DNA of 64,000 nucleotides from Spirochaetia bacterium. Its GTDB lineage: Bacteria > Spirochaetota > Spirochaetia > CADAEX01. The notes below the pieces were generated by a model. The model had not been told where the DNA came from, did no database searches, and worked only from the letters and a program-made list of their open reading frames with translations. Location of the stretch: assembly GCA_963662265.2 (NCBI GenBank), contig CAXXHA010000010.1, positions 256,001-320,000 of the forward strand, read 5' to 3'. The position numbers and the translations under genes were made by a program. Shown here one piece after another: positions 19,090-37,475 of the stretch; position 1 is the first letter of the stretch; the number at the start of each line of letters is the position of its first letter.

Positions 19090-21042
19090 TTAATCAATTT
19101 TGAAAAAGTCTATAACTCTTATCAGTTCCTTTGCTTCATTGGTAAGCTCTCCCGATGTGCCGGAAAGTTCTTCAGAGGCTGCCGCATTCTGCTGAATAAC
19201 ATTATCAAGTTCAATGAGAGCCCTGTTAATCTGTTCAACTCCTGTTGTCTGCTCTCCGCTTGCAGAGCTTATTTCCTGTACAAGCTCTGAAGTCTTTTCT
19301 ATTTCAGGAACAAGTGCCATCAGAAGATCGCTGCTTTCCTTTGCTGTTCCCATTGTCTGGGTTGAAAGCTCTGTTATCTCACTTGCAGCTACCTGGCTTC
19401 TTTCAGCAAGCTTCCTGACTTCAGATGCAACAACAGCAAACCCCTTACCGTGCTCCCCGGCTCTTGCAGCTTCTATAGCGGCATTGAGGGCAAGCATGTT
19501 TGTCTGCCTGGCAATATCTTCAATAATTGAAATCTTCTCAACTATATCCTGCATTGCTTCAAGAGACTTTCCAAGCTGAGTTGCGTTACCAGCCGCATCA
19601 ACCGCAACTTTCTTGGCTATATCGCCTGTTGTCCTGGAATTGTCCGCATTCTGCTTAATCGAAGCATTCATCTCTTCCATTGAAGCTGATACCTCTTCAG
19701 AGGAGGATGCCTGCTCAGAGGCTCCTGTTGCTATCTGCTGAGAGGAACCGTTTATCTGTTCACTGCTTGTGGAAAGCCTTTCTCCCGCCTCTTTTATCCG
19801 GCTTACTATACTTCTGAGAGAATCAAGCATGGTATTGAGAGATCTTCCCAGTTCCCCGAACTCATCCTTCTTCCTGAGGAATTCCTCAGGCGGATCAAAG
19901 GTAAGGTCTCCGTTTGCAATGTGAGAAGCAAGAGATACTGCATCGCCGATAGGCTTTATTGTCCTGCTTATGAAAAAGAAAATCAGGACTGATACTACTG
20001 CCAGTATGATTAGGCTGACAATAATAAACTGTGCAAGCTGCTGTCTTACAGGGGCCATGATCCGGTCTTTGTTTACAACAAGAAATACCGGCCATCCAGT
20101 CTGCTCAATTACTTCAGGGAATATAATATAGTTTTTGCCGTCATCTCCATGATATTCAATTGTCTCCCTGCTACCCGCTTTAACACCTTCAAAAGCACTC
20201 TTCAGTTCATCAGGAAAGACATCGCTTTCAAGTATATTGCCTTTAAGAATAAGTTCCTTATCCGGGTGGGCAATTACTGTACCGTCTGTATCTACAAGGT
20301 ATGCAAAACTGTCATCATGAAGCTTCAATGAATCCACAAGCTGGAGGATTATGTCTATGGACAGGTCAATTGCGGTCACACCGAGAAGTATCCCGTTGTC
20401 CCTTACAGGAGTAATCGGGCTGACAACAACTGTCCCGGTAATCCCGTCAATATAGGGACTTGTAATTGATGTATAATCCTTTTCTATTGCTCCGGAATAC
20501 CATGGCCTGTTTCTGAGAAAATAATACCTGTCTCCGGCATAATCCTCAGGATCAGCAATAAAGTCCTGAGTCTTTTCAAAACCGACATATGTGAGCATGA
20601 TGGAATCGTCACTCTTCTTTATATTCCGGAATGTTTCAACCGCGTTATAATAAAGTCCCATTATTTCAGGATCCCTCTCCATATCAGGGGTGGCAACTTT
20701 AATTGTTGATGCAAGCTTCTTGATATGATCCGGAAGAGAATCATATTCAGTATCTATCGGGGATTCATAGAAATACTCTCTGTATTCCTTCTTTCTCATC
20801 AGATCAATTATCCATTGATTTTTAGACATGCTGTCCGGTATTGCCATCTTCCTGGCAAGAAACCCTTCAACATTATTTACAGTTGCCTCAAGTGTTGCAG
20901 ATGCCTCACTGAATGTGGATTCAAGGAGAGTTTTGCTGAAATTCGTGAAAGTGATATACCCGTTCACAACAAAAAGGAAAATTACAGTCAAAAGAACAAT
21001 AAATGTTATTTTAAGTTTCAGTGAATTTAAATTGATCTTCAT
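19090..21042 (-). CDS. Methyl-accepting chemotaxis protein (dCache-HAMP-MA)
   Basis: Two TM helices; Cache motifs RPWY and SPYIDGITG; [40 protein letters not shown]. Confidence 0.97.
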
Positions 21043-21261: not shown

Positions 21262-24066
21262 TCAGAAACCTTTCCGCTCCATTTTTCCCCAGCCGGAAAC
21301 ATTTCTCAGGCTGCTGATATATCCCTTGAGCCGGACAAGACCCAGCACCTGCCTGAAACCGAAATTCTCAAGGAAAGCATAGAAAACAAGGATTATCTTA
21401 TCAGAAATGCTGTAATACCTGGCCCTGTATTCCGCAATAAACAATGAACAGAGAGAAACAAAAATTCCAAGAAGAACAGAAGCTGAGAATATTACAGCAA
21501 TGGATGGAAGCTGAAGAGAATCTGAAAGAACAGCAATAAGGAAAACTGCAGCCCCCTGCACTTCAAACCAAGGTCCCATCATTTCAAAGAAGAAGAAGTA
21601 CGGGAATGCAATAACACCAGCAGCCCCGTATGAGCGGTTGAAAAACATCTTGAAATGATAGCTCATTATATCAATAAGACCGCGCTGCCACCTGTCACGC
21701 TGACGTACCAGCACTTTCCAGCTTTCAGGAACTTCTGTCCAGCAGTTTGCATTGTAAATATATTTAATATCATAATCCCTTTTCTGCTCATTCAGCATCC
21801 TGGTTATCCGGACAACAAGCTCCATATCCTCGCCCACTGTATCTTTTTCAAAAAACTCACTGCCGGTAAGATATCCATGGACATCTATTACCCTGTTTCT
21901 CTTAAAAACACCGAAAGCACCGGATATTATAAGCAGTGCAATTTCAGACCAGCCAACTCTTCCTGCCATGAAAGACCTTATATATTCTACAGTCTGAAAT
22001 TTGACAAGAGGGGATTTCCCAAGCCTTATCCTGCTTATGAATCCGTTTTCCACAGTGCAACCGTTTACCGGGAATATATTGCCGCCTGCCGCAACAACCT
22101 CTTTGTCAGAATCGAGGAAGCTGCCCATTATTCTTAACAGGGCATCCCGTTCAAGGAGTGAATCTGAATCTATACCGACAAAATATTCACCGGAGGCAGC
22201 ATTGATACCGCAGTTAAGGGAATCCGCTTTTCCCCCGTTGATTTTATCAACAAGCAGAAGTTCAGGATATTTTTTCCCCTTGTAAAGTGCCCTGATACCC
22301 CTGGTTTTCAGGGATTCCATCACAGCAATATCTGTTTTTTCAAGTTCAAAATAATCTATCACTTTTTTAAGCGTGTTGTCTTTCGAACCGTCATTGACAA
22401 CAATAAGCTCATATTCGGGATACCTGAGATTCAGAAGAGAGTTAATACTTTCTATAATTGTATTCTCCTCGTTGAAAGCAGGAGCTATTATTGAAAGGGA
22501 GGGAAGTATGTTTTCCCTGAAAAGAAAGGAAAGCTGTTTTAGTTCCTGGTACCGGGCCTGTTTTACAACCCCTTTGAATGAGAATAAGAGCACTATGAGA
22601 TATATACTGTTAAGAGATACTGAATACACAGCAAACAGCCAGCTGAAAAAAGCAGAATAATTCCGAAAATGGAATTCAAAAGGATAACGCCCCTCCCAGA
22701 AATGGTGAAAGATCATATACAGAATTGGAGTTGTTACAAATGTAAGAATCAGGGCTGTATAAAGGAATTTCAGGCGGCTCTCTTCTCTGCTCTTTTTCTT
22801 CCTCTCCTTGAAATTTCTCCGCTTGAGTCCGGCCTTTATAATGAGTCTTTCATCGAGATAAAACTCAAAATCCCGTTTCAGTTCAGGGTTGTCAACACTG
22901 TTGAGTACTGAAATTATCTCATCCTCAAGCTCCCGGTTGCTGTTCTTGTTCATAAAATTAATAAGACTGCTGACTTTTTTTCTGTAGACAAGTTTCTTGA
23001 CAATAATATCTATCCTGCTTTTATCAACAGCAAGAAGAGATTCAAGAACATACTCAAGCCGGTTTGATATTACATCAAGCAGCCCTTCTGAAATTTCCTC
23101 ACTGATATCATTGAAAAAATACTCTGTTATGACTTTAAAATACTGGGGAGATTTCTTGATAATATTGGAAAGCGCAACAACTGCGTTTTCCTGGACACAG
23201 CAGTCGGAAAGATATTTTATCAGAACTCCAACATTTTTCAGGTCCGGTTTTTCTGAAAGAGACTCGACAGCAAGCTTCCTGATTTCAAGATCGCTGTTAT
23301 CCAGGTAGTTGTTAATATCTATAGCGGAAATATATTTTCTTGTAGCAGTTTCAAAAGCCATTCGTGATACGTGAATATCATCGGAATTTATTTTTTCAAT
23401 AACATAATCTTCAAAAAGGAATGAAGGATAATACGACGCGTAACTCAAAAGAAGAAACTGGATTTCCTTTTCAGGCCTGTTTTTAAGGATTTCAAAATAA
23501 TCAAGAAACCCGTCTTCAAAACCTGAAATAACACTTCGTATTTTTTCCTGCATCTTTTCAGGGACATCTCTGAGACTGTCAATAATCGAGGGGATAACTG
23601 CAGAGTCTTTCTGTTCGACAAGAGAATTAATAATGTAAAGCTTGCGGGCACTGCTTTTTTCCCTGAGAAGGGACAGCATGAGGGCATTTACAGCTTTTGG
23701 AGATTTTACATATCCAAGGCATACAGCTGCATAAGTTTTCCTGTAGCCCCGGCCCCGCATCAGCATCTTGAGAAGCCTGTTGACTATCCCCCATTTTTCA
23801 AGCAATTCAGATATTTCAACTTCAACACCGGAAGGAAAATCAACTGACTGCTTAAGCTCCATATATTCCTTCAGAATAATTTTCCAGTTTTGTTTCCTTA
23901 ATATTAATCCGGTATCCCTGTTGTTTATTTTTCCGCTGAAATATTCCCTTATACTGCTTCTTTTCTTCATATTCAGTCTCTTTGAAACAAAGAGAATTAC
24001 AAGCATCAGGACAGCGGCCGCATCAAGAAATAAAACTGTAAAAAAAATCAGGTATAACTGGGACAA
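21262..24066 (-). CDS. Processive GT2 polysaccharide synthase fused to N-terminal HEAT repeats
   Basis: PAFNEE, NDGSKD, NGGKADSLN, DSD, GED and QRDRW (QxxRW) motifs with flanking TM helices; HEAT-like repeats (AAVCLG, LAVESLS, AVVALS). Confidence 0.92.
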   Translation of the reverse strand: MSQLYLIFFTVLFLDAAAVLMLVILFVSKRLNMKKRSSIREYFSGKINNRDTGLILRKQNWKIILKEYMELKQSVDFPSGVEVEISELLEKWGIVNRLLKMLMRGRGYRKTYAAVCLGYVKSPKAVNALMLSLLREKSSARKLYIINSLVEQKDSAVIPSIIDSLRDVPEKMQEKIRSVISGFEDGFLDYFEILKNRPEKEIQFLLLSYASYYPSFLFEDYVIEKINSDDIHVSRMAFETATRKYISAIDINNYLDNSDLEIRKLAVESLSEKPDLKNVGVLIKYLSDCCVQENAVVALSNIIKKSPQYFKVITEYFFNDISEEISEGLLDVISNRLEYVLESLLAVDKSRIDIIVKKLVYRKKVSSLINFMNKNSNRELEDEIISVLNSVDNPELKRDFEFYLDERLIIKAGLKRRNFKERKKKSREESRLKFLYTALILTFVTTPILYMIFHHFWEGRYPFEFHFRNYSAFFSWLFAVYSVSLNSIYLIVLLFSFKGVVKQARYQELKQLSFLFRENILPSLSIIAPAFNEENTIIESINSLLNLRYPEYELIVVNDGSKDNTLKKVIDYFELEKTDIAVMESLKTRGIRALYKGKKYPELLLVDKINGGKADSLNCGINAASGEYFVGIDSDSLLERDALLRIMGSFLDSDKEVVAAGGNIFPVNGCTVENGFISRIRLGKSPLVKFQTVEYIRSFMAGRVGWSEIALLIISGAFGVFKRNRVIDVHGYLTGSEFFEKDTVGEDMELVVRITRMLNEQKRDYDIKYIYNANCWTEVPESWKVLVRQRDRWQRGLIDIMSYHFKMFFNRSYGAAGVIAFPYFFFFEMMGPWFEVQGAAVFLIAVLSDSLQLPSIAVIFSASVLLGIFVSLCSLFIAEYRARYYSISDKIILVFYAFLENFGFRQVLGLVRLKGYISSLRNVSGWGKMERKGF

Positions 24067-24068
24067 AA

Positions 24069-26156
24069 CTAATCCGCCTCTTTCCTTGAAAGATTTTCCA
24101 GCAGTCCGGAGACTTCTGTTATGGAATAAGGCTTTCTGAAATAATAGAGGATATTAAGCTTAATTGCTTTTTCTATATATTCCTCATTTTTCTTGTGTGA
24201 TGTAAAAATAAAAGGAATATTATTCAAAGTGGAATCTGACAGCATACTCTCCTTGATTGCAAAACCGTTTATGCCGGGAACCATTGTTTCACAGATAATT
24301 GCAAGAGGCCTTGTCTTTTTTATGAAGCGAATAGCATCATTGCCGTTATTAAGAATCCTGCTGTTGAATCCCATTTCCCTGAGCCGCCCGGTAAGAAGTT
24401 CAACATATTTCACATCAGGATCAATAATAACCACAGGGTCAGTCAGCCTGGTAAATTCACCGCTTTCCTCTGATTTATCACAGAGTGTATTGCCTCCCCC
24501 TTTTTTTGCTGTGTGAATTCTGGAATAACCTGTATCAATAATCTTGTTTATTATCTCTTCGGGAGGCATTGTATCGTTGAAATATTCATGCATATAAATT
24601 ATTCCGATTGAAGATGTAATTTCTTCAAGGAATGAAGTTGATTCAGCAATCTCCCGCCTGATATGGTCGGCTGTTTCAAGAGCAAACTGGACTGTACAGT
24701 CGGGAATATAATAAGCGAAGGCTGCGCTCCCCAGCTTGAAAAGGTAATGGGTTACCCTGCTGTAATCTGCAGATATGAAATTCTTTATAAGGAATGAAAC
24801 ACCTCGCAGCGCTTCATCGCCCCCTTCCCTCCCGTGACGGGCATTAATATCCATGATGTTATCAACACCGATAAAAAAAACAGCACTGTTTGTTTCTGTT
24901 TCAAGAGCTCCGGTAATTTCCTTTACCATATAGTTCCTGAAAAACATCTCATTCCTGAGACCGGTAACAGGGCATTTGGTAAGAGAGTCTTCTGTTTCCT
25001 CCAGCTCTCTCCTCATCCTGTTTTTTGTACCGTGAAGACGGACAGCTTCTTTATCAAGTGCAACATCTTTCGATTTCAGGTTAATCAGTATCCTTTTAAA
25101 TGCTGCCGGATACCTGATTGAATACTGCCTCGAAAATTTCCTTACAAGGGTTTCAATCATACTCAGATATTCCATCCCCTTGCTGTCGAGAATTACCTGG
25201 AAAAGCTTTTCCCATAAAGACTCGCCGTCAATTTTCAAGCTTATATCTGAAAGGGATGAAGTTTCTGAACTTATATTTTTTTTACTGCCTGTGCTGATTA
25301 TGCGGCATTTAGAATTTATATGAATACCGCCGCTTTCAAGCATGGCATCAATCTCATCAAATCCGTACAGAGAGACAAGCCGCTCTATAACCTCTTCACA
25401 GAGAGTTATATAATCCTGCGAGCCGTCAAATTTCATCCGCTCAACATTTTTAAAGCTTCCGCATTCAATTCTGCTTATTTTATTATAAAAAAATGAAAAA
25501 TCATTTTTTATGATCCCGCCTCTTGCCGGCGCTATCATGTCAACTTTAAGCTGCTTGATTTTTTCGACTGCGGAATTTACAAGATCTGTATTTGAAAAAA
25601 AATGCTCATGATAACTCTTCATCATTCCGTAATTTTCTTTTTCCATGTACAGATTATTCTCAAAGGAAAAGCTGCTGAACATGGAGGAGGAAAAAAGGAT
25701 TTTCTGCTTTACCAGGTAAAGATGAATCTCTTCAGGGGAATAAAGGTTTGAAGCAGGAAGAAAAAGCAGTTTCTCCCTGTTGGCAGTATCATATTCCCAC
25801 CTGTTTTCATTAATCACAAAAAAGTCGCATTCTGGATAGCATTTTGATAATGTATTGTACCCTCTCCAGTGAAGTGCAACTTCTGCTTTTTTCACTTCGT
25901 TCAAAAAGAGAGGAAGAGAGGAACTCATGTCAGGGGATACTGTTGTAAGAACAATTAAAGATATTTTCTGTATATCAGTCAGGGATTCAATACTGTCTCT
26001 GACAGATTCAAAGCTGCTGTAGGGGCCGGGATTTATAAGAATGAACTCTTTTCCGCATTCAACAAGAAAAATATTGGGAACAAGACTTTCACTACTCCCG
26101 TTATTCACCCCGATCCTGTAGACTGAATCGGAAATTCTGAAAACAGCTTTATTCAA
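24069..26156 (-). CDS. MBL/ODP-fold + GGDEF-like + receiver domain protein (all three degenerate)
   Basis: ILINPG and KILFSSSMF (MBL/flavodiiron-like); PVTGLRN..INARHGREGGDEAL (GGDEF scaffold); C-terminal REC ending YFRKPYS; TTG start. Confidence 0.8.
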   Translation of the reverse strand: MNKAVFRISDSVYRIGVNNGSSESLVPNIFLVECGKEFILINPGPYSSFESVRDSIESLTDIQKISLIVLTTVSPDMSSSLPLFLNEVKKAEVALHWRGYNTLSKCYPECDFFVINENRWEYDTANREKLLFLPASNLYSPEEIHLYLVKQKILFSSSMFSSFSFENNLYMEKENYGMMKSYHEHFFSNTDLVNSAVEKIKQLKVDMIAPARGGIIKNDFSFFYNKISRIECGSFKNVERMKFDGSQDYITLCEEVIERLVSLYGFDEIDAMLESGGIHINSKCRIISTGSKKNISSETSSLSDISLKIDGESLWEKLFQVILDSKGMEYLSMIETLVRKFSRQYSIRYPAAFKRILINLKSKDVALDKEAVRLHGTKNRMRRELEETEDSLTKCPVTGLRNEMFFRNYMVKEITGALETETNSAVFFIGVDNIMDINARHGREGGDEALRGVSFLIKNFISADYSRVTHYLFKLGSAAFAYYIPDCTVQFALETADHIRREIAESTSFLEEITSSIGIIYMHEYFNDTMPPEEIINKIIDTGYSRIHTAKKGGGNTLCDKSEESGEFTRLTDPVVIIDPDVKYVELLTGRLREMGFNSRILNNGNDAIRFIKKTRPLAIICETMVPGINGFAIKESMLSDSTLNNIPFIFTSHKKNEEYIEKAIKLNILYYFRKPYSITEVSGLLENLSRKEAD

Positions 26157-26238
26157 AAGAATACTCCTGGTATTGGTAAGAACCTGCTGAAATCACTTTT
26201 TTTATGGAATATACCGAGGTCCGCTTAAATTATCGGTG

Positions 26239-28023
26239 TCAACGTGTCTCATTATTATAAATTCTGACTCTTCTGCCCTTTATTTCCGCTTTATAGCCGG
26301 GAATTACCCCGTTTACATCAGAAACAGCAATCTCTGAATTTTCAAATCCCGAGACAATAAATCCGGCAGAATGATCAAAATCATCATTATCAATTTTTAT
26401 TGTAATTTTTCCGGCTGCTTCAAGAATTCTGAATTCGAGATGAGATCTCTTACGCCAGAATTCCCCGAATTCTGTCAGGTTTCCCATCCACCCGTCCTGT
26501 TTATCTACATATTTCATCAGCCTTTCCTGGGCAACAAGCTTGTGGTTACTGTCCCTTGTATCGGAAGGATGCACTAAAAGAACAGTTACAGCAGAGTTGT
26601 CGCTGTTCAGTTTTACAACACGCTTCCAGACAGTCACAGCCTTATCAACCGTATCAGGTGTAAGATAACCAAGAGAATCATCAAGAGTGACAGGTATTTC
26701 AATGATATCTGTCTCGGGAGATCCCGGCTGTCTCTCCCTGAACGCATAGTAGGGAAAAGAGGTGAGTACATCGTTTGATGAAAAAGTAGAATCATAGAGA
26801 TACCCGTATTCCTCAAGAACCTTTATAAGTGAGCTGTGGTATTCAAGGTCTCCTGCCCTGAAGCTTATTGTATCCTGCCCCGAAATATCCCTGTCCAGGA
26901 GCTCCTTGCTAACCGCGACCTCTCCCCGCAGGGTTTTTCTCTTCAGAGGATCATATGTGGCAAAGGTGACATCTTTTTCACCCATTTCCGCCTTCGAAAG
27001 CTTTTTGTAGTGGGAGACAGTGTGTGACCCGATATCCCATCCCATCTTTTTCAGTTTCCTGATAGCATCAACATTTTCCCCAATATTGTAATAATCAATA
27101 TCAAGGTAATCGGTAAAATACTTTGTATTTTCAAAGAAAGTACTTGTTACTCCATATTTTTTTTCTAGCGCGGCATATTTAAGAGAATCGACAAACGAGG
27201 TCTGTGCATCGACATCATGGCTCAGAACCAGTACCGGATTTTTAAGATGAGGAGTTGTTCCGATTATCAGACTTTTTCTGCTGTAGTTCTGGTAGAGGGC
27301 CTTCATTATAAGCATTATCGCATCGGCGGAAGGTTCAAAGGAATTAACATATTTCCTCTGCGCCTCAAAATCATCCCCCACCTGGGGAAGCATTATTGCC
27401 TCAACAAAAGAAAGCCCCAGTAGATATGCAGTACCCCTTCCATAGATGTTTTTTATAAAAGCAGCTGATTTATCGCTGAATTCGCCAAGCACATCTGAAT
27501 AACCGTCAGCTTCATAGCCGTGGGACCATATCACCTCTTCATAAAATCTGTCCTCGCCGTTCCCGAGAGATATTGTCTTTTCCGCTTCATGGTCAATATA
27601 TTCAAACACAGGATCCCTGCCTTTGAAAGAAAGCCGGTACCTCTTTTTCGATGGTAAATAGTTTTTCACTCCGAACAGGGGATAAAGTCTCCTGGAAATC
27701 TGCCCTGCCGCAAAAAGAGTTCCCCCCCCTTCGACATAATCGTAGATAGTATTTATTATTTCTGATTTAATATTCTTTTCAATGAGCGGCCCTGAAACAT
27801 ATGCAACATCATAATCAAAAATATCCTCAATATCTTCAAGAATTCTGTATGGTATCCCCTGAATATCAAAAATCCTTCTCATTGCTGTAAATTCGGCAGA
27901 ATAACCCTTTAATGTACCGGGTTTGTAAAGTGCGGCTTTTACCGATTCTGTTACATCTTTTTCACAGTATGCTGCAGCAGATATGAACAGAAGGAAGAGA
28001 ACTGTAAAATTTCTTACTTTCAT
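26239..28023 (-). CDS. Secreted polysaccharide deacetylase (NodB/CE4-like) with N-terminal accessory domain
   Basis: Signal peptide; SHDVD, IGSHTVSH, FRAG, YDST, EIPVT and LVHP motifs. Confidence 0.85.
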   Translation of the reverse strand: MKVRNFTVLFLLFISAAAYCEKDVTESVKAALYKPGTLKGYSAEFTAMRRIFDIQGIPYRILEDIEDIFDYDVAYVSGPLIEKNIKSEIINTIYDYVEGGGTLFAAGQISRRLYPLFGVKNYLPSKKRYRLSFKGRDPVFEYIDHEAEKTISLGNGEDRFYEEVIWSHGYEADGYSDVLGEFSDKSAAFIKNIYGRGTAYLLGLSFVEAIMLPQVGDDFEAQRKYVNSFEPSADAIMLIMKALYQNYSRKSLIIGTTPHLKNPVLVLSHDVDAQTSFVDSLKYAALEKKYGVTSTFFENTKYFTDYLDIDYYNIGENVDAIRKLKKMGWDIGSHTVSHYKKLSKAEMGEKDVTFATYDPLKRKTLRGEVAVSKELLDRDISGQDTISFRAGDLEYHSSLIKVLEEYGYLYDSTFSSNDVLTSFPYYAFRERQPGSPETDIIEIPVTLDDSLGYLTPDTVDKAVTVWKRVVKLNSDNSAVTVLLVHPSDTRDSNHKLVAQERLMKYVDKQDGWMGNLTEFGEFWRKRSHLEFRILEAAGKITIKIDNDDFDHSAGFIVSGFENSEIAVSDVNGVIPGYKAEIKGRRVRIYNNETR

Positions 28024-28044
28024 AAAGTCTCTCCATATTAATTT

Positions 28045-29395
28045 TTATTCACTCCAGAATAATTTATCAGGATCGCTGTAAAGCTCACACGCTATGATAA
28101 ACCAGGCAGTTCCGGCAACAGAGGGATAATCACTGAAAAGATACGGGAGATTAACAGAAGAATAAACAAGTCCGCCGTCCACCGACATTTCTGTCATGTT
28201 CCTTATGATCTCGAGTCCTTTTTCAGGGCTTCCCCCCCTTATCCATGCGGCAGCTGCGCCAAGCGAACCTTCAGACCATACAACATTTATATCATCCCAT
28301 TCTGTGTTTTCAGAACCGTCAAACTGGTGCCTGTTTAGAGCCTTGTTCTCATAAACCGGTTCATTATAATAGGGGCCATACCCTTTATAACCGTTCCCTT
28401 CTGTCATGAAATTCCGGTCCATAGTCTCCAGAGCTGTCCTGGTTTTTCCTTTAGCCCCTATGCTTTCAAGAAACAGAGCGCCCCAGGAAGCGCCGTCCAG
28501 CGGAAGTGCGGTATCTCTTTTACCGTCTATTTTAATCCCCCGAATAAACTGGCCGGAGCTGTTATCCCAGAATGCTTTAAGAATTGATTTTTTCAGCAGC
28601 TCTCCCCTGTTGAGAAAAAAACCTGTCGCCTGTTACAAGGTAGAGGCTCTTCAGGAGAAAATAGATATCAATGTTATGTTCGACACTTACCCATCCGACA
28701 GGATCATAGTTGTAAACCTCTTCAATACTTTCTTTCTCGTTTGAATATTCTACCTTGTAAGTTCCCCTCCCTCCTGTGACAAGGCCGTAGCGGGAATCAT
28801 TTTTTTCACGCACCTGGTTTTCAAGGAGGTATTTAGCAATTCTTTCAGAAGCCTCTGTATACCGCCTGCCTGCTATGTCATCTTTATAGAAACGGCTCTC
28901 CTCTGTATTCCTGACAGAGACATAATGGGAAAGAGCATAACCTGCCCAGGCAAGGGCACCGCTTCTGATCATTGCCCCCTCATGATCGTTTTCATCAGGC
29001 CAGCTGTTATGTGTATTATACGAAAACCAGAGACTTCCGTTTTCCCGGACCAATCGTGAAAGGGAATTAAGTATTGATTCAGCTTCCCTGTATTTTCCCG
29101 CCATTGTAAAAGCGATTGCAGCAACAGCATTGTCATATGCAAAAGACCTTCTTGCCAGGTAGCGGTATGCGGGATCGTTTTCAGGTATTTTATAGCTGAG
29201 AATAAGTTTTCTCCTGTCGGGAGATGGATTTTCAACAACAGAATTTGGCACTATCTGTCTTTTAAGCCATCTCAGGGATTCTTCATATGCATTGTTGAGA
29301 TCTGTATTTTCCGGCTTGTTGAAGGGGGAATCAGCAGAAACAGGGACAACAGCTGCTGAAATAAGTAAAATAAAATACAATAATCTGTTTTTCAT
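28045..29395 (-). CDS. Secreted six-hairpin (alpha/alpha)6 glycosidase-like protein, frameshifted at the A7 tract 28615-28621
   Basis: Removing one base joins the two ORFs (..TGDRFF-LNRGELLKKSILKAFWD..LPLDGASWG..METMDRNF-like junction) into about 449 aa; YDNA, WVSVEHNID, VWSEGS and SVAGTAWF motifs. Confidence 0.65.
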
Positions 29396-29482
29396 AAAAT
29401 ACCTTACCGATAATTTGATAACTTAATTATTATATATTAAAAATAATAATAAACAGTTTTTTTTCAAGAAAATGAGGTTGCA

Positions 29483-30821
29483 ATGAAAAAATTCACTTTT
29501 TTATTATTCATATTATTATTCTCGATAATTTTTCCGCTCTTTTCACAGAATATTTATGAAAACAGGGATGTGGACAAGCTTGTGGAACGGGGAATAAAGT
29601 ATGAAAGAGATAATAATCTGTATGAAGCAATAAAGACATACAGACAGGTACTTCAGCTGGATGATAAAAATTTCCTTGCTCTTATCAGGCTTGCGAAGCT
29701 TCTGAGCTGGACAGAACAGACAGAGGAAGCTCTCTCAATACTGAACCGCCTGGAAAAGGAATATCCTGGCAACAGTGAAACGTATTTCAGGAAAGCCCAG
29801 GTTCTCAGCTGGCAGAAAAAACTATGATGAATCAATAAATTATTACAACAAATTCCTAGAAATGGAACCTGGAGATCTTGATGCAACAATGGGGCTGGGG
29901 AGGGTTTATTTCTGGTCAAAGAAATACAGGAAAGCGATAGACTACTTTAACCTTGCAATAGAAAACAACTACAGCGTAACAGAAGCCCGGCTGAATCTTG
30001 CAAAGATATATTTCAACATGAATGAATCGGTAAAAGCTGAAGAAATACTGCTTATTATCCTGGAGGAGGATCCTGATAATCCCGAGGCAAAAGAACTTTA
30101 CGCAACCCTTCCCCAGTTCATGAAATTCGAAGCTTCCCCATCTATTTTAAAAATGGATTTTTACGAAGGGGGAGATTTCGGCCTTAAACTGTCTCCTTTT
30201 CTCAATTACAGGCTGAACAAGATGTGGGACCTGCGTGTAAAATATGATTTTCTTTCTGCTGACAGCAAATCAGACAGTATATTCTCTGCTGGAGCCACAT
30301 TTAAAGGGGTTAAAAACCTTGCACTTGCTGCAGATATATCAGCGGCTGTCAATCCTGAACTGACTGAAGCCTTCAAGATTGCGGGGCAGGCCAACTACAG
30401 TATAAACAGAAATATCGGAGCAGGAATGGTTGTAGAGCATCTTGCATTCAAGGATATAAACAATCCTGTACAGAGCAATGAGAACCTCACAATTCTTAAA
30501 CCATCTTTCAGTTATTATTTTACAGATATAAGCTACACAACAATCCAGTATATTCAGTATCTTTACGGATCAGGATTCAGCACATCTGCTGTAAGCCTCA
30601 ATATTACACTGGAATACTATAATAAAAATGCCCTCAGCTTTGCGGTAACATATGGCGGAGACTATGAATCAATGGATGAAGACAGGGAGCTTTTTGAAGC
30701 GGGGGGTGGCATTTCCTATCTCTTCAACAACAATTTCCAGCTGGGATTAGGATTTACACATATTGAATCTGAATACAGCACAACAAATCAGGTTATTATA
30801 TCGCCTGTAATAAGGTGGTAG
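29483..30821 (+). CDS. TPR + outer-membrane beta-barrel protein (YaiO/PgaA-like exporter), frameshifted at the A6 tract 29816-29821
   Basis: Signal peptide; TPRs continue across the junction (VLSWQK-NYDESINYY); alternating beta-strands with a C-terminal Trp. Confidence 0.75.
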
Positions 30822-30840
30822 GTAAATATATTATTCTGTA

Positions 30841-30885
30841 AAAAAGCTGATAAACCACTTCTGGAACAGGTTATCAGCTTTTTTT
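30841..30885. terminator. Rho-independent terminator
   Basis: AAAAAGCTGATAA...TTATCAGCTTTTTTT. Confidence 0.8.
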
Positions 30886-31013
30886 ATATCCGGAAAACAA
30901 CAGCTCTTCATGATAATTTCTCATGTATAGGATGATATTAAATATACCATTATTTTCCGGCAGTGTTTTAATCCTCTTGACTAAAAAGGGGTGAATAATT
31001 ATAAACTCACCCT

Positions 31014-31510: not shown

Positions 31511-32596
31511 CTATTCAAGAGCAACTGTTTCAGCAAAAATCTGCTCAAGATCTCCTGAGATCTCGGTAAAGACTTTATAGACATCCGGATCAAAATGTGA
31601 AGGATCTGTCCTTCCGTCCCCTTCGGTAATTATCCGGAAAGCAGTCTCATGATCAAAACTCTTTTTATAGGGCCTTTCACTCCTCAATGCATCATACTGA
31701 TCCGCAATCATTACAATTCGGCTTTCAATAGGGATAGAATCTCCTGAAAGACCATTCGGATACCCTCCGCCGCAGTATTTTTCATGATGAGAGAGGGCAA
31801 TTCTTCCCGCCATCTGTAGCTGGGGGGAAGTGGATTCCTTGAGTATTTTATATCCTATAGTTGTATGTTCCTTCATCAGCTGGAATTCAGCATCTGTAAG
31901 AGGACCGTTTTTCAGAAGAATGCTGTCAGGAATTCCGACCTTTCCTATATCATGCATCATGCCTGCAAGCTTGATAGTATCAATAAAATTCCTGTCCATC
32001 CCGAGTTTTTCAGCAATTCTGGCTGATATGTTGCCGATTCTTAAAATATGAGCGCCTGTATCTGAATCCCTGTACTCAGAGACAGAAACCAGCCTCATAA
32101 TTGTTTCAGTATTTGCAAGTTTAAGCTCTTCATATGCCTTGAAAAGCTCCCTGTCCTGTTCCTCGACACGCTGCTCAAGAGTTATTTTATAGTTTTCCTC
32201 TATCTTGAGCAGTTCTATAAAACGGAGAGCCTTATGAACAGATTTTTTCAGGATAACAAAATCTATAGGCTTGATAAGTATATCAAAAGCATCTTTCTTA
32301 ACTGCCTCAAAAGCAATTTCTATATCAGGAAAACCGGTGATAAGTATCACTGGTTTATTTATATCCTTTTCATGTATTTTGTTGAGAAGTTCAATCCCTC
32401 CCATTACCGGCATTTTTATATCAGTTATAACAAGATCAGCATCATTGCCGTCCAGGTATTCAAGTCCTTCAAGGCCATTAGATTTTTCTACAACATCATA
32501 ACCTACTGTCTCCAGGAGTCTTGCTATACTTCCCCGAATAAATTCATTGTCATCAATAATGAGAATTTTCTTCTTATCTGCATTCTGCTCCATCAA
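31511..32596 (-). CDS. Response regulator with HD-GYP phosphodiesterase domain
   Basis: REC (IIDD, TDIKMP, LIKP); RDSDTGAH, HDIGK, HHEKYCGGGYP, DQYDAL..RPYK. Confidence 0.95.
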   Translation of the reverse strand: MMEQNADKKKILIIDDNEFIRGSIARLLETVGYDVVEKSNGLEGLEYLDGNDADLVITDIKMPVMGGIELLNKIHEKDINKPVILITGFPDIEIAFEAVKKDAFDILIKPIDFVILKKSVHKALRFIELLKIEENYKITLEQRVEEQDRELFKAYEELKLANTETIMRLVSVSEYRDSDTGAHILRIGNISARIAEKLGMDRNFIDTIKLAGMMHDIGKVGIPDSILLKNGPLTDAEFQLMKEHTTIGYKILKESTSPQLQMAGRIALSHHEKYCGGGYPNGLSGDSIPIESRIVMIADQYDALRSERPYKKSFDHETAFRIITEGDGRTDPSHFDPDVYKVFTEISGDLEQIFAETVALE

Positions 32597-33300: not shown

Positions 33301-34224
33301 TTAAAGGAAAAATTCACTCCCCTCTACAGCAAGTGAAAACTCCATTTTCCGGTGGATATCTGCATATTTGTTTCTGTAGAAATCTATAAGAAAATCCAGC
33401 TCCTCATCTGTCCGTTCAGGGTCATGGTGTGTAAGAAGGAGTTTTTTTACTCCCGCACTGTAGCTCTTTTCTATTGCAAACTCAAAGCTAGAATGCCCCC
33501 AGCCAAGCTTGTCCTTTTCCATTTCATCCTTTGTGTACTGCGAATCATAAACAAGAATATCGGCGCCTGAGAAAAACTCTACAAGCTTCCTGTTCTCTTC
33601 GGCAGCTGCTGCTTCACCCTCTTCGGCTGCAGCACTGTCATAATCAGGATCATCAGGATCGGTTGGAAATACATTTCTGAAAGGCTCTGAATCTGTGGCA
33701 ATACAGAAACATTTACCGCCGCATTCTATTCTGTACCCGAGACAGAGTACAGGATGGTTGAGATATTTTGTAGTTATTTTAATTCCGTCCCTGAGGTAAA
33801 AAGATGTTTCTCTAAGGGGGTTATATTCCATTTCTGCAGAAAGTTCACTTTTTATAACAGGAAAATACCTGTACTGAAACTGGCTGCCTATGATTTCTTC
33901 GATACCGCCCTCTTCATATGTTACAGGTCCGTAAAACCTGAGCTTTGTCGAGGGAATATATATAGGCGTAAAAAAAGGAAACCCGAGAATATGGTCCCAG
34001 TGTGTATGTGTAATGAGAAAATCAAGATCAATATTTTTTCCCGGGAGATATTTTTTTACAAGATAGTTTCCGAGAAGTCTCAAACCTGACCCACCATCAA
34101 TAATTATTTCGCAGCCGCCGTCCTCAGGATCAATTTCAAGACATGTTGTATTTCCGCCATATTTCATTGTATCGGCGCCGGGACTCGGTATAGAGCCCCG
34201 CACTCCCCAGAGTTTTATTCGCAT
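33301..34224 (-). CDS. MBL-fold metallo-hydrolase (phosphodiesterase-like)
   Basis: WGVRGSIPSPG, THTHWDH, LNHP, DSQY, GWGHS, THHDP. Confidence 0.9.
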   Translation of the reverse strand: MRIKLWGVRGSIPSPGADTMKYGGNTTCLEIDPEDGGCEIIIDGGSGLRLLGNYLVKKYLPGKNIDLDFLITHTHWDHILGFPFFTPIYIPSTKLRFYGPVTYEEGGIEEIIGSQFQYRYFPVIKSELSAEMEYNPLRETSFYLRDGIKITTKYLNHPVLCLGYRIECGGKCFCIATDSEPFRNVFPTDPDDPDYDSAAAEEGEAAAAEENRKLVEFFSGADILVYDSQYTKDEMEKDKLGWGHSSFEFAIEKSYSAGVKKLLLTHHDPERTDEELDFLIDFYRNKYADIHRKMEFSLAVEGSEFFL

Positions 34225-34234
34225 AGACTATTCC

Positions 34235-35107
34235 TCAGTTTTTAATTTCAAGAAATATCCTGGCCTTGTCCATCTCCTCTTTTACATAGTCATTTATTTT
34301 TTCAGGATATGTTTCATCAACTCCGGCTTCCTTATAAACAGAGGCAATCGGAACATCCGGACATCTGTTTCCGGAATAATAACAGCCGAAAAGATTTGCA
34401 AAGTAATCTGCCAGAATTATAGTATAAGTCAGTTTTTTATATTTTTCATCCACAGAATTAATATCATGATGTGAAACAATAACATTTTTAACAGGATCTC
34501 CAAGATTCCAGGATTCAGCAATCATCAGCCCTGTTTCTGTGTGGTCCATTCCGAAAAACTCTTTTTCAGCTTCTGCTGTAGAGCCGTAAAAGCCACCTGC
34601 CCGTTTTTCAACCAGCTCTGTATATTCTCCGGGAAAACATGATATCAGCGGTATTTTTCCTATATCATGAAGAAGTCCGTTGATGAAGTATTCCTCCTGC
34701 TCGGCTCTGCTGATTCCTGTGTCTGATGCAATTTTTCTGGCAATAATCCCGGTGCAGAGGGAATGTTCCCAGAATTTATCGCTGTTCATTTTCACAAAAT
34801 TCTTTTCCCCGGACATAAGCCCCATGACTGCGGAGCTGAGCGCGAGGTTTTTTACAGTATTCATTCCAAGCATGATAATTGCACGGACAAGAGAAGTAAC
34901 TTTATCGGAAAGGCCGTAATAGGCAGAATTAATAAGTTTCATGACCTTGCCCATAAGCACAGGGTCAAGGCTTATAACTTTATAAAGATCTACAGGCGAT
35001 GTTTTTGGATTATCACAGATTTCCTGAACCTTGGAAACAGTAACAGGCAGACTCGGCATATTTTTGATGTAGCTGGAGACAACTTTCAGCCGATTACCCT
35101 TCATCAT
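34235..35107 (-). CDS. HDOD domain protein
   Basis: MPSLP, DPVLMGKVMKLINSAYYG, FWEHS, GLLHDIGK, DHTETG..IAESWNL. Confidence 0.92.
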   Translation of the reverse strand: MMKGNRLKVVSSYIKNMPSLPVTVSKVQEICDNPKTSPVDLYKVISLDPVLMGKVMKLINSAYYGLSDKVTSLVRAIIMLGMNTVKNLALSSAVMGLMSGEKNFVKMNSDKFWEHSLCTGIIARKIASDTGISRAEQEEYFINGLLHDIGKIPLISCFPGEYTELVEKRAGGFYGSTAEAEKEFFGMDHTETGLMIAESWNLGDPVKNVIVSHHDINSVDEKYKKLTYTIILADYFANLFGCYYSGNRCPDVPIASVYKEAGVDETYPEKINDYVKEEMDKARIFLEIKN

Positions 35108-37475
35108 TGTTTACCTCTTTAAGCTTTCCAAGAATATTATCAAGCCGTGTGCTGACAGCTTTTCCGGTATCTTTCTCCGGAAGAAAATCAGCAAGTGATT
35201 TTATATAGGAAAGAGTACCTGCTATTTCATTTTCGGTCAAATTTCCATCAACTTCACTGGAATTCCCTGAAACTTCACTCTTATCCTCTGTTTTTACAGA
35301 ATCTATCAGGCCCCTGTTCCCGTTCAGCTTCATCCTGAGCGAATCTATCCGAAGCCTTGTCATGCTGTGCCTGAATTTATCATGAAGAGGAGGTTTGAGA
35401 TCCTCAGCCATGTCTTCAAGATGCCCGAGCAGATTTGAAATCAGAGGGTTTTCATAACCTGATTCCTCCCTGTAATTTACAGGATTATCATCTATTTCAG
35501 GGACCTCTTCAGGCTCCGGCTTTTTTTCCTTTTTTTCTTCAGGCGTATCTTCTTTTATCTCCGGTTCAGACGTTATTTCCTCTTTTGTCTCAGGCTCAGC
35601 CGGGGGTGGAGGCATGTACTGCGGAGGGGGAGGCATGAATACAGGGACAGGTGTATACTGAGGAGGTGCGGAGGCTTCAACCTGTTTTGTAATTTCCTCA
35701 CGGATCTTCTCCTCTTTCTCCTGAAAATATCCCTCACTCTTATCAGGATCAAATTCCTCTTCTATTTCATCAAGCCGGACATGTATTTCCTCTTCATTGA
35801 TTTCTATTACAGGCTCAATTCCCCCGACATCAATTATGGGAACATATTCATCCTCCAGGGCAGATACTGAATCCAGAAGAAAGCTGTTTTCCTCCAGCAC
35901 TTCAGGCTCGCCTGTATCTTCCCTGACAAATTCCTTTATAAACACCCCTATTCTGCTGTCAATTTCATCCCTGTTCTGTTTTGCAAAAGAATCTGAGGCC
36001 TTGTCAAAAAGCTCAACACCCTTTCCAAGCATTTCAATATCAATATCTTCCTGGGATCCGATAAGCCGGCTTGCATACTCCACCGACTTTTCCCTGTCAC
36101 CAATCTGATTATATACATCTACAAACGATGATATTGTCTCGGGATAATTCTGCATATCACCCTTTAGTGATTTTAAAACATTCAATGCATCTTCATATTT
36201 TCCCTGGGACTTCAGAACATCTGTATAGTTGATCAGCAGGGGATAATTTCCCGGGTCTTTTTTAAGCAGATCCCTGAGAAGTATTTCCGCATTGTCCCTG
36301 TCACCAGATGCAATCAATAACTGGGATTTTGCTGTTTTAAGAGCAGCATTGTCAGGAGCCTTGCTTTCCGCCCTGTTTAAAACCGCTTCAGCCTCTTCGA
36401 TTTTCCCTTTTTTGAGAAGAAGCATCCCTCTGGAGGAGACTGCAGTAATATTATCAGGTTCGTTTTCAATTATTCTTTCAATTATATTTTCAGCTTTTTC
36501 TGTCTCCCCCTTGTCCAGATAGACAGATGCCTTGTGCAGTTTTATATCATTGTTCTCGGGAGAAAGGAGTTCAACCCGGCTGAGCTCCTCGAGCGCGTTA
36601 TCAAACTCCCCGTTTTCCCGGTATATTTCTCCCAGGTTAATCGAAGCTTTTATATATCCCGGATTATCGGAAATTGCCTCGCGGAAAAACTTTTTTGCAT
36701 CCTCCCTGCTGCCGATATCCCTGTATGTCGTTCCAATGTTGTTTTTCACCATGGGGTTCCCGGGCTCAATGCTGAGAGCATCATGAAATGTTTTTATCGC
36801 TCGGTTATGCTGCCTGTTTTTTTTATATGCAATTCCCAGGTTGTTGAGGCTGTCTACCCAGACAGGCTGCGAAGAGAGTGCGTGTTTATACATCTGGATA
36901 GCATCATCAATCCTGTCCAAGCTGTCATATAGTATTCCAAGGTTATACAAAAGTGATGGGTTGTTTTCATCAACCTTAAGCCCTTCCCGGAAAACCTGCT
37001 CAGCTTTTTCAGTTTCGCCGGCATTCTGGTACAGTGTGCCGAGATTATTGTAACACTGGACAAAGCTGCTGTTCAGCTGAATTGCGGATAGAAAATATTT
37101 TTCAGCATTTGTAAAATCATTTTTCTGTTTATAGATATTCCCGATATTATAGTTGATTTCCGGACTGTCCGGATAAAGAGAGAGTGCCTTTTCAAGGTAA
37201 TATAATGCCTTGTCAGGATTATTTTTCTGCCTGTAAATTACAGCGATATTGGAATAACTGTCAGGGTTGTCCGGGTTTACAGAGAATGCCTCGTTATAGT
37301 ATTTTTCTGCATTTTCAAGATCACCCTGGAGGAAATAAATATTACCGAGAGTAATATGGAGTTTGTCATTGTCCTGATCATCTTCAAGTGCTTCAAAGAC
37401 TGTTTCTTCAGCTTTTTTATAATCCTTAATCTGAATCAGAGATGATATTTTGTCATAAAGTTCTTTGCTCAACAT
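35094..37475 (-). CDS. Large TPR protein with acidic/proline-rich C-terminal region
   Basis: More than ten TPRs (YNNLG, LYNLG); PPQYTPVPVFMPPPPQYMPPPP linker. Confidence 0.9.
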   Translation of the reverse strand: MLSKELYDKISSLIQIKDYKKAEETVFEALEDDQDNDKLHITLGNIYFLQGDLENAEKYYNEAFSVNPDNPDSYSNIAVIYRQKNNPDKALYYLEKALSLYPDSPEINYNIGNIYKQKNDFTNAEKYFLSAIQLNSSFVQCYNNLGTLYQNAGETEKAEQVFREGLKVDENNPSLLYNLGILYDSLDRIDDAIQMYKHALSSQPVWVDSLNNLGIAYKKNRQHNRAIKTFHDALSIEPGNPMVKNNIGTTYRDIGSREDAKKFFREAISDNPGYIKASINLGEIYRENGEFDNALEELSRVELLSPENNDIKLHKASVYLDKGETEKAENIIERIIENEPDNITAVSSRGMLLLKKGKIEEAEAVLNRAESKAPDNAALKTAKSQLLIASGDRDNAEILLRDLLKKDPGNYPLLINYTDVLKSQGKYEDALNVLKSLKGDMQNYPETISSFVDVYNQIGDREKSVEYASRLIGSQEDIDIEMLGKGVELFDKASDSFAKQNRDEIDSRIGVFIKEFVREDTGEPEVLEENSFLLDSVSALEDEYVPIIDVGGIEPVIEINEEEIHVRLDEIEEEFDPDKSEGYFQEKEEKIREEITKQVEASAPPQYTPVPVFMPPPPQYMPPPPAEPETKEEITSEPEIKEDTPEEKKEKKPEPEEVPEIDDNPVNYREESGYENPLISNLLGHLEDMAEDLKPPLHDKFRHSMTRLRIDSLRMKLNGNRGLIDSVKTEDKSEVSGNSSEVDGNLTENEIAGTLSYIKSLADFLPEKDTGKAVSTRLDNILGKLKEVNNDEG

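Follow-up and report, generated by a model that had tools for sequence, protein, structure and literature searches.

The window analysed here is a 64,000-nucleotide stretch of DNA from a Spirochaetia bacterium, and the candidate exopolysaccharide cluster under study occupies its positions 21262-30821. Four minus-strand genes in one orientation, with intergenic gaps of 2, 82 and 21 bases, encode a HEAT-GT2 glycosyltransferase (the synthase), a regulator with ODP, GGDEF and receiver (REC) domains, a secreted CE4 deacetylase and a secreted hydrolase-like protein. One divergent plus-strand gene encodes a protein with TPR repeats and a beta-barrel (Table 1). A first-pass annotation made from the DNA alone had described this set of four closely spaced, co-oriented genes and one divergent gene correctly, but it had not noted that two of the five are frameshifted in the window.

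Table 1. Genes and other features of the cluster in the window, followed by features of related loci, which are given with the handle of the locus (aa, amino acids)
Feature	Position	Strand	Description
HEAT-GT2 synthase	21262-24066	-	934 aa; Glycos_transf_2 2e-22, HEAT_2 3e-5, Chitin_synth_2 5e-7 (Pfam)
ODP/degenerate GGDEF/pseudo-receiver regulator	24069-26156	-	695 aa; ODP 4e-30, GGDEF 5e-12, Response_reg 3e-11 (Pfam)
Secreted CE4 deacetylase	26239-28023	-	594 aa; Polysacc_deac_1 4e-8 (Pfam)
Secreted (alpha/alpha)6-toroid hydrolase-like protein	28045-29395	-	449 aa after removing one base at 28615
Divergent spacer	29396-29482	.	87 bases between the four-gene operon and the barrel gene; one promoter-like match per strand
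TPR + beta-barrel protein	29483-30821	+	445 aa after removing one base at 29816; signal peptide, TPR repeats
~1060-aa protein	L026:11062-14286, L042:12790-15927; 22 further loci
Partner-switching genes	L027:1-1638, L029:7661-9728, L030:9133-9465; also L073, L081

The synthase combines a HEAT-like domain (residues ~30-430) with a GT2 domain (~520-800), and hydropathy analysis revealed hydrophobic segments at residues 1-31, 434-453, 475-501 and 839-882. It possesses the D, DxD, ED and QxxRW motifs of processive membrane GT2 enzymes, and its GT2 domain has membrane segments before and after it. The residues in question, summarised in the first-pass annotation as D,D,D,QxxRW, proved to be invariant among 10 synthase orthologues of 32-79% identity (D559, D633xD635, E746-D747 and Q789-R-D-R-W793). 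That is, judged by its motifs and hydropathy, the layout is that of a processive membrane GT2 synthase with an extra membrane anchor and a HEAT-like domain of about 400 residues. With two membrane segments between them, the HEAT and the GT2 domain should both face the cytoplasm.

The best NCBIfam match of the synthase was PgaC_IcaA (TIGR03937) with 116.5 bits, below the cut-off of 422.3. E. coli PgaC aligned at 29% identity over 367 columns (E=9e-29) and E. coli YaiP at 27% identity over 204 columns only, while BLASTP revealed no similarity to E. coli NfrB (E=0.14). The BcsA model (TIGR03030, cut-off 699) reached 34.2 bits on the cluster proteins. When the HEAT region was searched against 1.84 billion cluster representatives, matches were few: 229 had E values of up to 1e-3, 83 of up to 1e-10 and 27 of up to 1e-30. 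They are mostly proteins of about 940-970 residues. We refer to such proteins as long-form synthases. Short-form GT2s, in turn, align to residues ~474-934 of the synthase only, with 42-47% identity, and are carried by Neomarinimicrobiota, Gemmatimonadota, Balneolaceae, Ignavibacteria and others. Directly upstream of the short-form synthase, 18 loci encode a separate HEAT_2 protein (Pfam HEAT_2), and in 10 loci a TPR protein with a YaiO barrel (PF19413, 9e-47) adjoins it; GGDEF-REC-like and REC genes lie farther upstream. The match between the fused HEAT region and one such separate HEAT protein was weak (hhalign probability 60, E=8.7e-5); the HEAT_2 assignments of the separate proteins by Pfam carry more weight. 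The HEAT module and the TPR-barrel protein therefore both travel with the synthase clade across phyla, fused or separate.

The names of the ODP, GGDEF and receiver domains alone would suggest that the regulator is an active signalling enzyme, namely a diguanylate cyclase and response regulator that senses O2, but its motifs do not support that. We counted residues in an alignment of 48 full-length homologues. The GG[DE]EF motif was found in none of the 48, where the consensus reads xGPxF and the window protein GSAAF. An I-site RxxD, located five residues before the place of the GGDEF motif, was in register in a single homologue, the window protein having RVTH. Pfam does recognise a Response_reg domain, in which the phospho-acceptor position is occupied by Glu in 46 homologues (E623 in the window protein). 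The ODP domain (PF19583) scored 105.5 bits against a cut-off of 27.2 and aligned to the PDB chains 6qrq and 6qnm. At the positions aligned to His and Asp residues of 6qrq, which we take to be iron ligands, 21 of the 48 homologues have the full set H,D,D,H,D,H,H. The window protein reads T,S,D,Y,S,H,R there and its own family T/S,S/D,D,Y/S,S,H,R, so that the metal site has probably been lost in this lineage. By these motifs, the regulator is incapable of making cyclic di-GMP (c-di-GMP) and is not phosphorylated on Asp; in this organism it is, on the same grounds, a triple pseudo-enzyme. The c-di-GMP-type regulator of the first-pass annotation was thus not borne out.

A degenerate GGDEF domain might still switch the synthase on as a receptor of c-di-GMP, in the manner of Pel or Pss systems and as implied by the first-pass annotation, but we regard such gating as unlikely here. 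Degenerate GGDEF proteins are receptors beside synthases in Listeria, where c-di-GMP binding by PssE has been shown (PMC4125290). REC-HD-GYP genes are likewise found close to the cluster, both in the window (31511-32596) and in the genus and the locus L026. However, the near-absence of RxxD from the I-site register argues against c-di-GMP gating, and the Pfam scan detected no PilZ or MshEN domain in the cluster proteins. Those GGDEF-domain positions that are kept (D432 in 46 of 48 homologues, N438 in 34 and D447 in 37) presumably fit nucleotide binding at the former active site and not at the I-site; N438 and D447 resemble what we take to be guanine-binding residues.

Regulator and synthase are encoded side by side in nearly all loci examined. 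Among 41 related genomes, this genome included, 11 encode the synthase, and a regulator homologue adjoins it in all 11 loci. A pattern scan of one genome per species yielded at least 586 stretches, of which 580 were confirmed and the best 80 kept. Long-form loci make up 53 of these 80. All but two of them (51 of 53) have a regulator homologue on the same strand, at most 1.5 kb upstream; in the other two the synthase match begins less than 1 kb from a contig end. By record title, 19 of the 53 belong to spirochaetes (Treponema, Sphaerochaeta, Marispirochaeta, Rectinemataceae and one Leptospira-labelled metagenome-assembled genome, MAG) and 32 to Bacillota or Mollicutes (Clostridium, Oscillospiraceae, Eubacteriaceae, Carnobacteriaceae, Bacilli, Acholeplasmataceae), while two are unlabelled. 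Taxon labels on MAGs may be imprecise, and, as the 80 loci were kept for their closeness to a spirochaete query, the split is not a census. The system is not specific to spirochaetes, the setting for which the first-pass annotation had described it. Within the phylum it is patchy: in an even sample of 301 genomes, 24 had a synthase match at 1e-60, nine of them long-form (this genome included), and the rest were short-form, mostly from one family (13 of 17). We also observed long-form pairs in MAGs of wall-less bacteria labelled Acholeplasmataceae, Mollicutes or Tenericutes (L053, L063, L067, L072, L085, L109 and others). The regulators in MAGs with these labels mostly do not have the H,D,D,H,D,H,H set.

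Two of the accessory genes have broken reading frames in the window. The two parts of the hydrolase-like gene, 28577-29395 and 28045-28632, lie in different frames and overlap at an A7 run (~28615); those of the TPR/barrel gene, 29483-29827 and 29745-30821, overlap at an A6 run (~29816). We aligned assembled contigs of four public sequencing runs (two samples, two studies) to positions 27800-31000; one of the two samples is near-identical to the window and may be its source. Contigs from all four runs had one base fewer at 28615 and at 29816 and no other indel in this region. Deleting both bases in silico opened frames of 449 and 445 residues, whose products share 78% and 82% of their residues with the same-genus orthologues across the entire length. 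Both genes are intact single frames in two genomes of the same genus (G001, G002; 446 and 445 residues). Given the shorter A-runs in the run contigs and the open repaired frames, both breaks are most likely homopolymer over-calls of this assembly and the genes intact in the organism; the system as a whole is then probably intact as well. Decay of the locus, with both genes as pseudogenes, or phase variation at the A-runs, with a system that is off or switchable, would also account for breaks that sit exactly on homopolymer runs in the two genes flanking the divergent promoter region. We consider this very improbable in view of the shorter runs in four of four contig sets, the intact orthologues and the rest of either gene, which contains no other stop. 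The same genome record may hold further homopolymer errors that create false pseudogenes elsewhere.

In the spacer between these two genes, promoter-like consensus matches were found at 29467-29440 (-) and 29415-29444 (+). These are matches only, and we do not rely on them because the promoter and terminator scan returned 40 consensus matches against 26.4 in shuffled sequence, a count close to expectation.

The hydrolase-like protein had no match in Pfam or NCBIfam. Its family has at least 276 members; Pfam recognises a family for this domain in none of them, and every one is either unnamed or called 'hypothetical'. The acidic residues D85, E236, D240, D297 and E372 are invariant. An AlphaFold2 (AF2) model of the intact same-genus orthologue, built from an alignment of 81 rows, formed an (alpha/alpha)6 toroid with a predicted local distance difference test (pLDDT) score of 94.6. 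Foldseek matched it to dextran dextrinase (9ju0) at E=5e-10. Structural alignment with VIA gave Z=37.0 for 9ju0 (354 residues aligned, root mean square deviation 3.0) and Z=35.8 for the methylmannose polysaccharide hydrolase 7qsj, with 320-354 residues aligned and 12-13% identity for these two. Epimerases and members of GH15, GH76 and GH94 followed at Z=28-33, and identity was 8-15% over all matches. The six-hairpin glycosidase-like fold read from the sequence by the first-pass annotation is thus confirmed at the level of the predicted model.

The CE4 protein comprises a signal peptide, an N-terminal domain resembling Glyco_hydro_42M and the CE4 domain, which matched Polysacc_deac_1 (PF01522) with 33.7 bits (cut-off 23.1). 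Invariant in seven homologues are H269-D-V-D272, H334-x3-H338, R389 and H485, which we take to be the metal-binding and catalytic motifs of CE4 enzymes. Pfam assigned Glyco_hydro_42M to the N-terminal domain in four of the seven homologues, in agreement with a GATase1-like domain. Atlas look-alikes of this domain (DUF2194 and LBP_M, scores 0.86-0.90) are leads only, and sequence searches of the PDB with the protein gave marginal matches only. BLASTP detected no similarity between the CE4 protein and E. coli PgaB (E=0.47).

The product of the divergent gene starting at 29483, proposed in the first-pass annotation to be a beta-barrel, was indeed predicted to be one. In the AF2 model of the intact same-genus orthologue (24 rows, pLDDT 89.5), a signal helix is followed by 11 TPR helices, corresponding to about 5.5 repeats, and by a barrel of 14 strands. 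Foldseek found E. coli BcsC (9b8a, 9b8h) as the only kind of match that spans both TPR repeats and barrel, and the 14-strand OmpG (2wvp) matched the barrel half at TMt 0.68. Profile-profile alignment of the barrel family with the TPR+YaiO proteins that stand beside short-form synthases extended over 361 columns, barrel included (hhalign probability 99.8, E=1.3e-27). Aligned as a single sequence to one TPR+YaiO protein, the barrel protein matched in the TPR part alone, and the families listed for the 24 members of the barrel family did not include Pfam YaiO (PF19413). The curated models of BcsC (PRK11447, cut-off 858) and PgaA (TIGR03939, cut-off 366.65) reached 15-18 bits on the cluster proteins (15.8 bits for BcsC). 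Taken together, the parts list of the first-pass annotation was right: a processive GT2, a secreted CE4 protein, a secreted (alpha/alpha)6 protein and a TPR protein with a beta-barrel.

How firmly do these accessory genes belong to the synthase? Two genomes of the same genus show all five genes in synteny. The sister genus keeps synthase, regulator and divergent barrel, with no CE4 or hydrolase-like gene at the locus. In L037, a CE4 gene (53% identity) and a hydrolase-like gene lie just downstream, and in L079 the barrel, regulator, synthase, hydrolase-like and CE4 genes follow each other on one strand, in an order that differs from the window. In three further genomes the hydrolase-like and CE4 genes are still adjacent and in the same order, but lie 640 kb (G009) or 1.4 Mb (G028) from the synthase or on another contig (G039). 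Such separation would be expected if two unrelated modules were mere neighbours, the regulator-synthase pair making a polymer and the hydrolase-like and CE4 proteins, perhaps with the barrel, acting on peptidoglycan, an imported glycan or another surface polymer. The size of the hydrolase-like family points in the same direction, as does the fact that neither gene is near most loci with the regulator-synthase pair. We nevertheless hold the two-module explanation to be unlikely. The pattern is nested: the hydrolase-like gene occurs in six of the 41 relatives, all of them among the 11 synthase carriers, and in 0 of 30 non-carriers. Moreover, the hydrolase-like/CE4 pair adjoins the synthase in three differing arrangements (own genus, L037 and L079), and other CE4 types recur beside the regulator-synthase pair (L026, L049, L058, L062, L030), sometimes with a GNAT or GH16-like gene. 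The barrel gene was found in five of the 41 relatives, always beside the synthase. The accessory genes are thus tied to the synthase by genome co-occurrence. The first-pass annotation had asked whether all five genes co-occur in other genomes; they do, but only the regulator-synthase pair is universally linked, and CE4, hydrolase-like and barrel genes are lineage-specific accessories.

Among the known synthase-dependent systems, Pga/Ica (PgaABCD/IcaADBC) is the closest by curated GT2 relationship and shares the logic of synthase, CE4 protein, glycosidase and TPR-porin. However, the synthase described here falls below the family cut-off and carries the 400-residue HEAT domain, and Pfam and NCBIfam scans of the cluster proteins revealed no small partner resembling PgaD. 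The cluster has neither a PgaB-type lipoprotein combining CE4 and GH153 nor a PgaA porin; its CE4 protein is unrelated to PgaB by BLASTP, and the deacetylase and the hydrolase-like part are two distinct proteins of other families. PgaA forms a barrel of 16 strands, compared to the 14 predicted here, and the regulator of the present cluster is a large cytoplasmic pseudo-enzyme.

The Listeria PssA-E/PssZ and B. subtilis YdaJKLMN systems likewise pair a GT2 synthase with a degenerate GGDEF partner and a six-hairpin-type hydrolase; they are compared here at the level of parts lists. In our cluster, the GGDEF domain is without a conserved I-site, and its neighbours are ODP and pseudo-receiver domains where those systems have membrane helices. 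We saw no subunit resembling BcsB, and the hydrolase-like protein belongs to no Pfam family. The TPR-porins BcsC, PgaA and PelB and the YaiO barrels share N-terminal TPRs followed by a C-terminal beta-barrel with our protein, which is much shorter; the resemblance to BcsC, its best whole-length structural match, is at the level of the fold only. With BcsA and BcsC scores far below their cut-offs and no PilZ domain, the cluster is not a Bcs cellulose system, and it differs from NfrAB/YbcH in that its synthase is not an NfrB-type GT2 with a c-di-GMP-binding C-terminal domain. The ODP (oxygen-binding di-iron protein) of Treponema denticola chemotaxis resembles the N-terminal domain of the regulator, and 21 of the 48 family members keep the corresponding His/Asp residues. 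In our case, by contrast, the domain is fused to a dead GGDEF and a pseudo-REC domain and paired with a synthase and not with chemoreceptors, and the aligned positions are replaced in the window protein. A counterpart of the regulator was not found among the systems compared.

A one-to-one mapping onto the E. coli yaiO-yaiX-yaiP-yaiS cluster was rejected. In E. coli K-12 (L112, 380069-384616), this uncharacterised cluster comprises the yaiO barrel, the yaiX acyltransferase broken by IS2, the GT2 gene yaiP and the deacetylase gene yaiS. It follows a similar parts logic, with YaiP as a distant relative of the synthase described here. The statement of the first-pass annotation that the cluster does not match the canonical operons stands in that no one-to-one correspondence was found for Pga, Bcs, Nfr and the E. 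coli yai cluster. Its statement that no characterised equivalent is known in spirochaetes agrees with our full-text literature searches, in which we found no description of the system, most subscription journals and supplements lying outside the coverage. A term search for ODP gave no match in a 2022 census of c-di-GMP sensory domains. It is therefore plausible that the cluster represents a variant, as yet uncharacterised, of the synthase-dependent exopolysaccharide systems. Of most interest are the core of regulator, HEAT domain and synthase and the breadth of that core, and not the spirochaete setting.

On balance, we consider it reasonably probable that the locus is a synthase-dependent exopolysaccharide system, consisting of a HEAT-GT2 synthase, a pseudo-enzyme regulator and periplasmic and outer-membrane accessories. 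From gene content, motifs, predicted folds, adjacency and co-occurrence we infer the following sequence of steps. The PgaC-like HEAT-GT2 in the inner membrane would polymerise a sugar from its nucleotide-sugar, the chain passing through the enzyme's own membrane channel. The sugar is probably an N-acetyl-hexosamine; since a PgaC-like GT2 is combined with recurrent CE4 partners, such a polymer is our best guess, but no more than that. The cytoplasmic HEAT domain may serve as a docking platform for the ODP/dead-GGDEF/pseudo-receiver protein encoded immediately upstream. This regulator would then be an allosteric subunit that gates the synthase, not an enzyme that makes c-di-GMP. In about half of the family the ODP domain, with its full putative di-iron set, could sense O2 or iron. 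In this organism, because those putative di-iron positions are lost, the regulator is probably a fixed scaffold or responds to another input. In the periplasm, the CE4 protein would partly deacetylate the polymer and the (alpha/alpha)6 protein would trim or release it, before the TPR protein with its 14-strand barrel carries it across the outer membrane. The product suggested by the PgaC-like GT2 and the CE4 protein would be a partly de-N-acetylated glycan, as the first-pass annotation had proposed.

Several points weigh against the reading as an exopolysaccharide system. The GT2 lies so far below the PgaC_IcaA cut-off that it does not define the sugar, and CE4 enzymes act also on O-acetyl esters and on peptidoglycan. 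Because the (alpha/alpha)6 fold is common to epimerases and phosphorylases as well, it does not by itself establish a hydrolytic role. The co-occurrence counts rest on few lineages, namely four genera for the hydrolase-like gene and two for the barrel gene, and kin are not independent. The run data are assembled contigs, in which rare variants drop out, so that phase variation at the A-runs could have gone unseen. Finally, most loci that hold the regulator-synthase pair do so without the accessory genes, and in Bacillota and some spirochaetes, 24 loci in all, a membrane-anchored protein of ~1060 residues without a Pfam match is found instead.

This ~1060-residue protein has one N-terminal membrane segment and stands directly beside the pair; part of the 24 loci belong to short-form phyla. 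L030 has it as a fusion with the synthase, a protein of 1735 residues. It was not found in this genome by tblastn. The protein looks like a third core component in other lineages.

Biofilms are shaped by synthase-dependent exopolysaccharides such as cellulose, poly-N-acetylglucosamine, Pel and alginate, and every characterised system of this type is switched post-translationally in a way of its own. If the exopolysaccharide reading is true, it adds a further, widespread system to this list, with 580 or more related loci in the scan of one genome per species. Its switch would consist of a HEAT platform and three signalling domains that are catalytically dead, a novel mode of controlling a processive synthase in which oxygen or iron may play a part. 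YaiO-type barrels and an (alpha/alpha)6 family without a Pfam entry would receive roles that can be tested. The core of enzyme and sensor is found in many unrelated bacteria and has apparently escaped study so far.

We also put forward, tentatively and with considerable doubt, a more far-reaching proposal. Regulator and HEAT domain together might form a hitherto unrecognised, c-di-GMP-independent gate of a PgaC-like synthase, with O2 or iron at intact ODP sites switching synthesis. The module would then be ancient or highly mobile, present in monoderms, including the wall-less Acholeplasmataceae, and in diderms, where it would have recruited a dedicated 14-strand porin of the TPR-YaiO type. 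If so, the orphan YaiO barrel family would gain its first function, that of a polysaccharide exporter.

Just upstream of the regulator, several spirochaete loci encode a STAS protein and a SpoIIE phosphatase with a HATPase_c_2 kinase domain. The window is without these partner-switching genes, which hint at an additional regulatory layer. The cluster itself is flanked by genes for a dCache-HAMP chemoreceptor (19090-21042) and the REC-HD-GYP protein mentioned above. Beyond the latter, positions 33301-37475 contain genes of the metallo-beta-lactamase-fold, HDOD and long-TPR types. Within the genus, both flanks (chemoreceptor and HD-GYP) are kept, and the lactamase-fold/HDOD/TPR block is kept also in the sister genus (L023).

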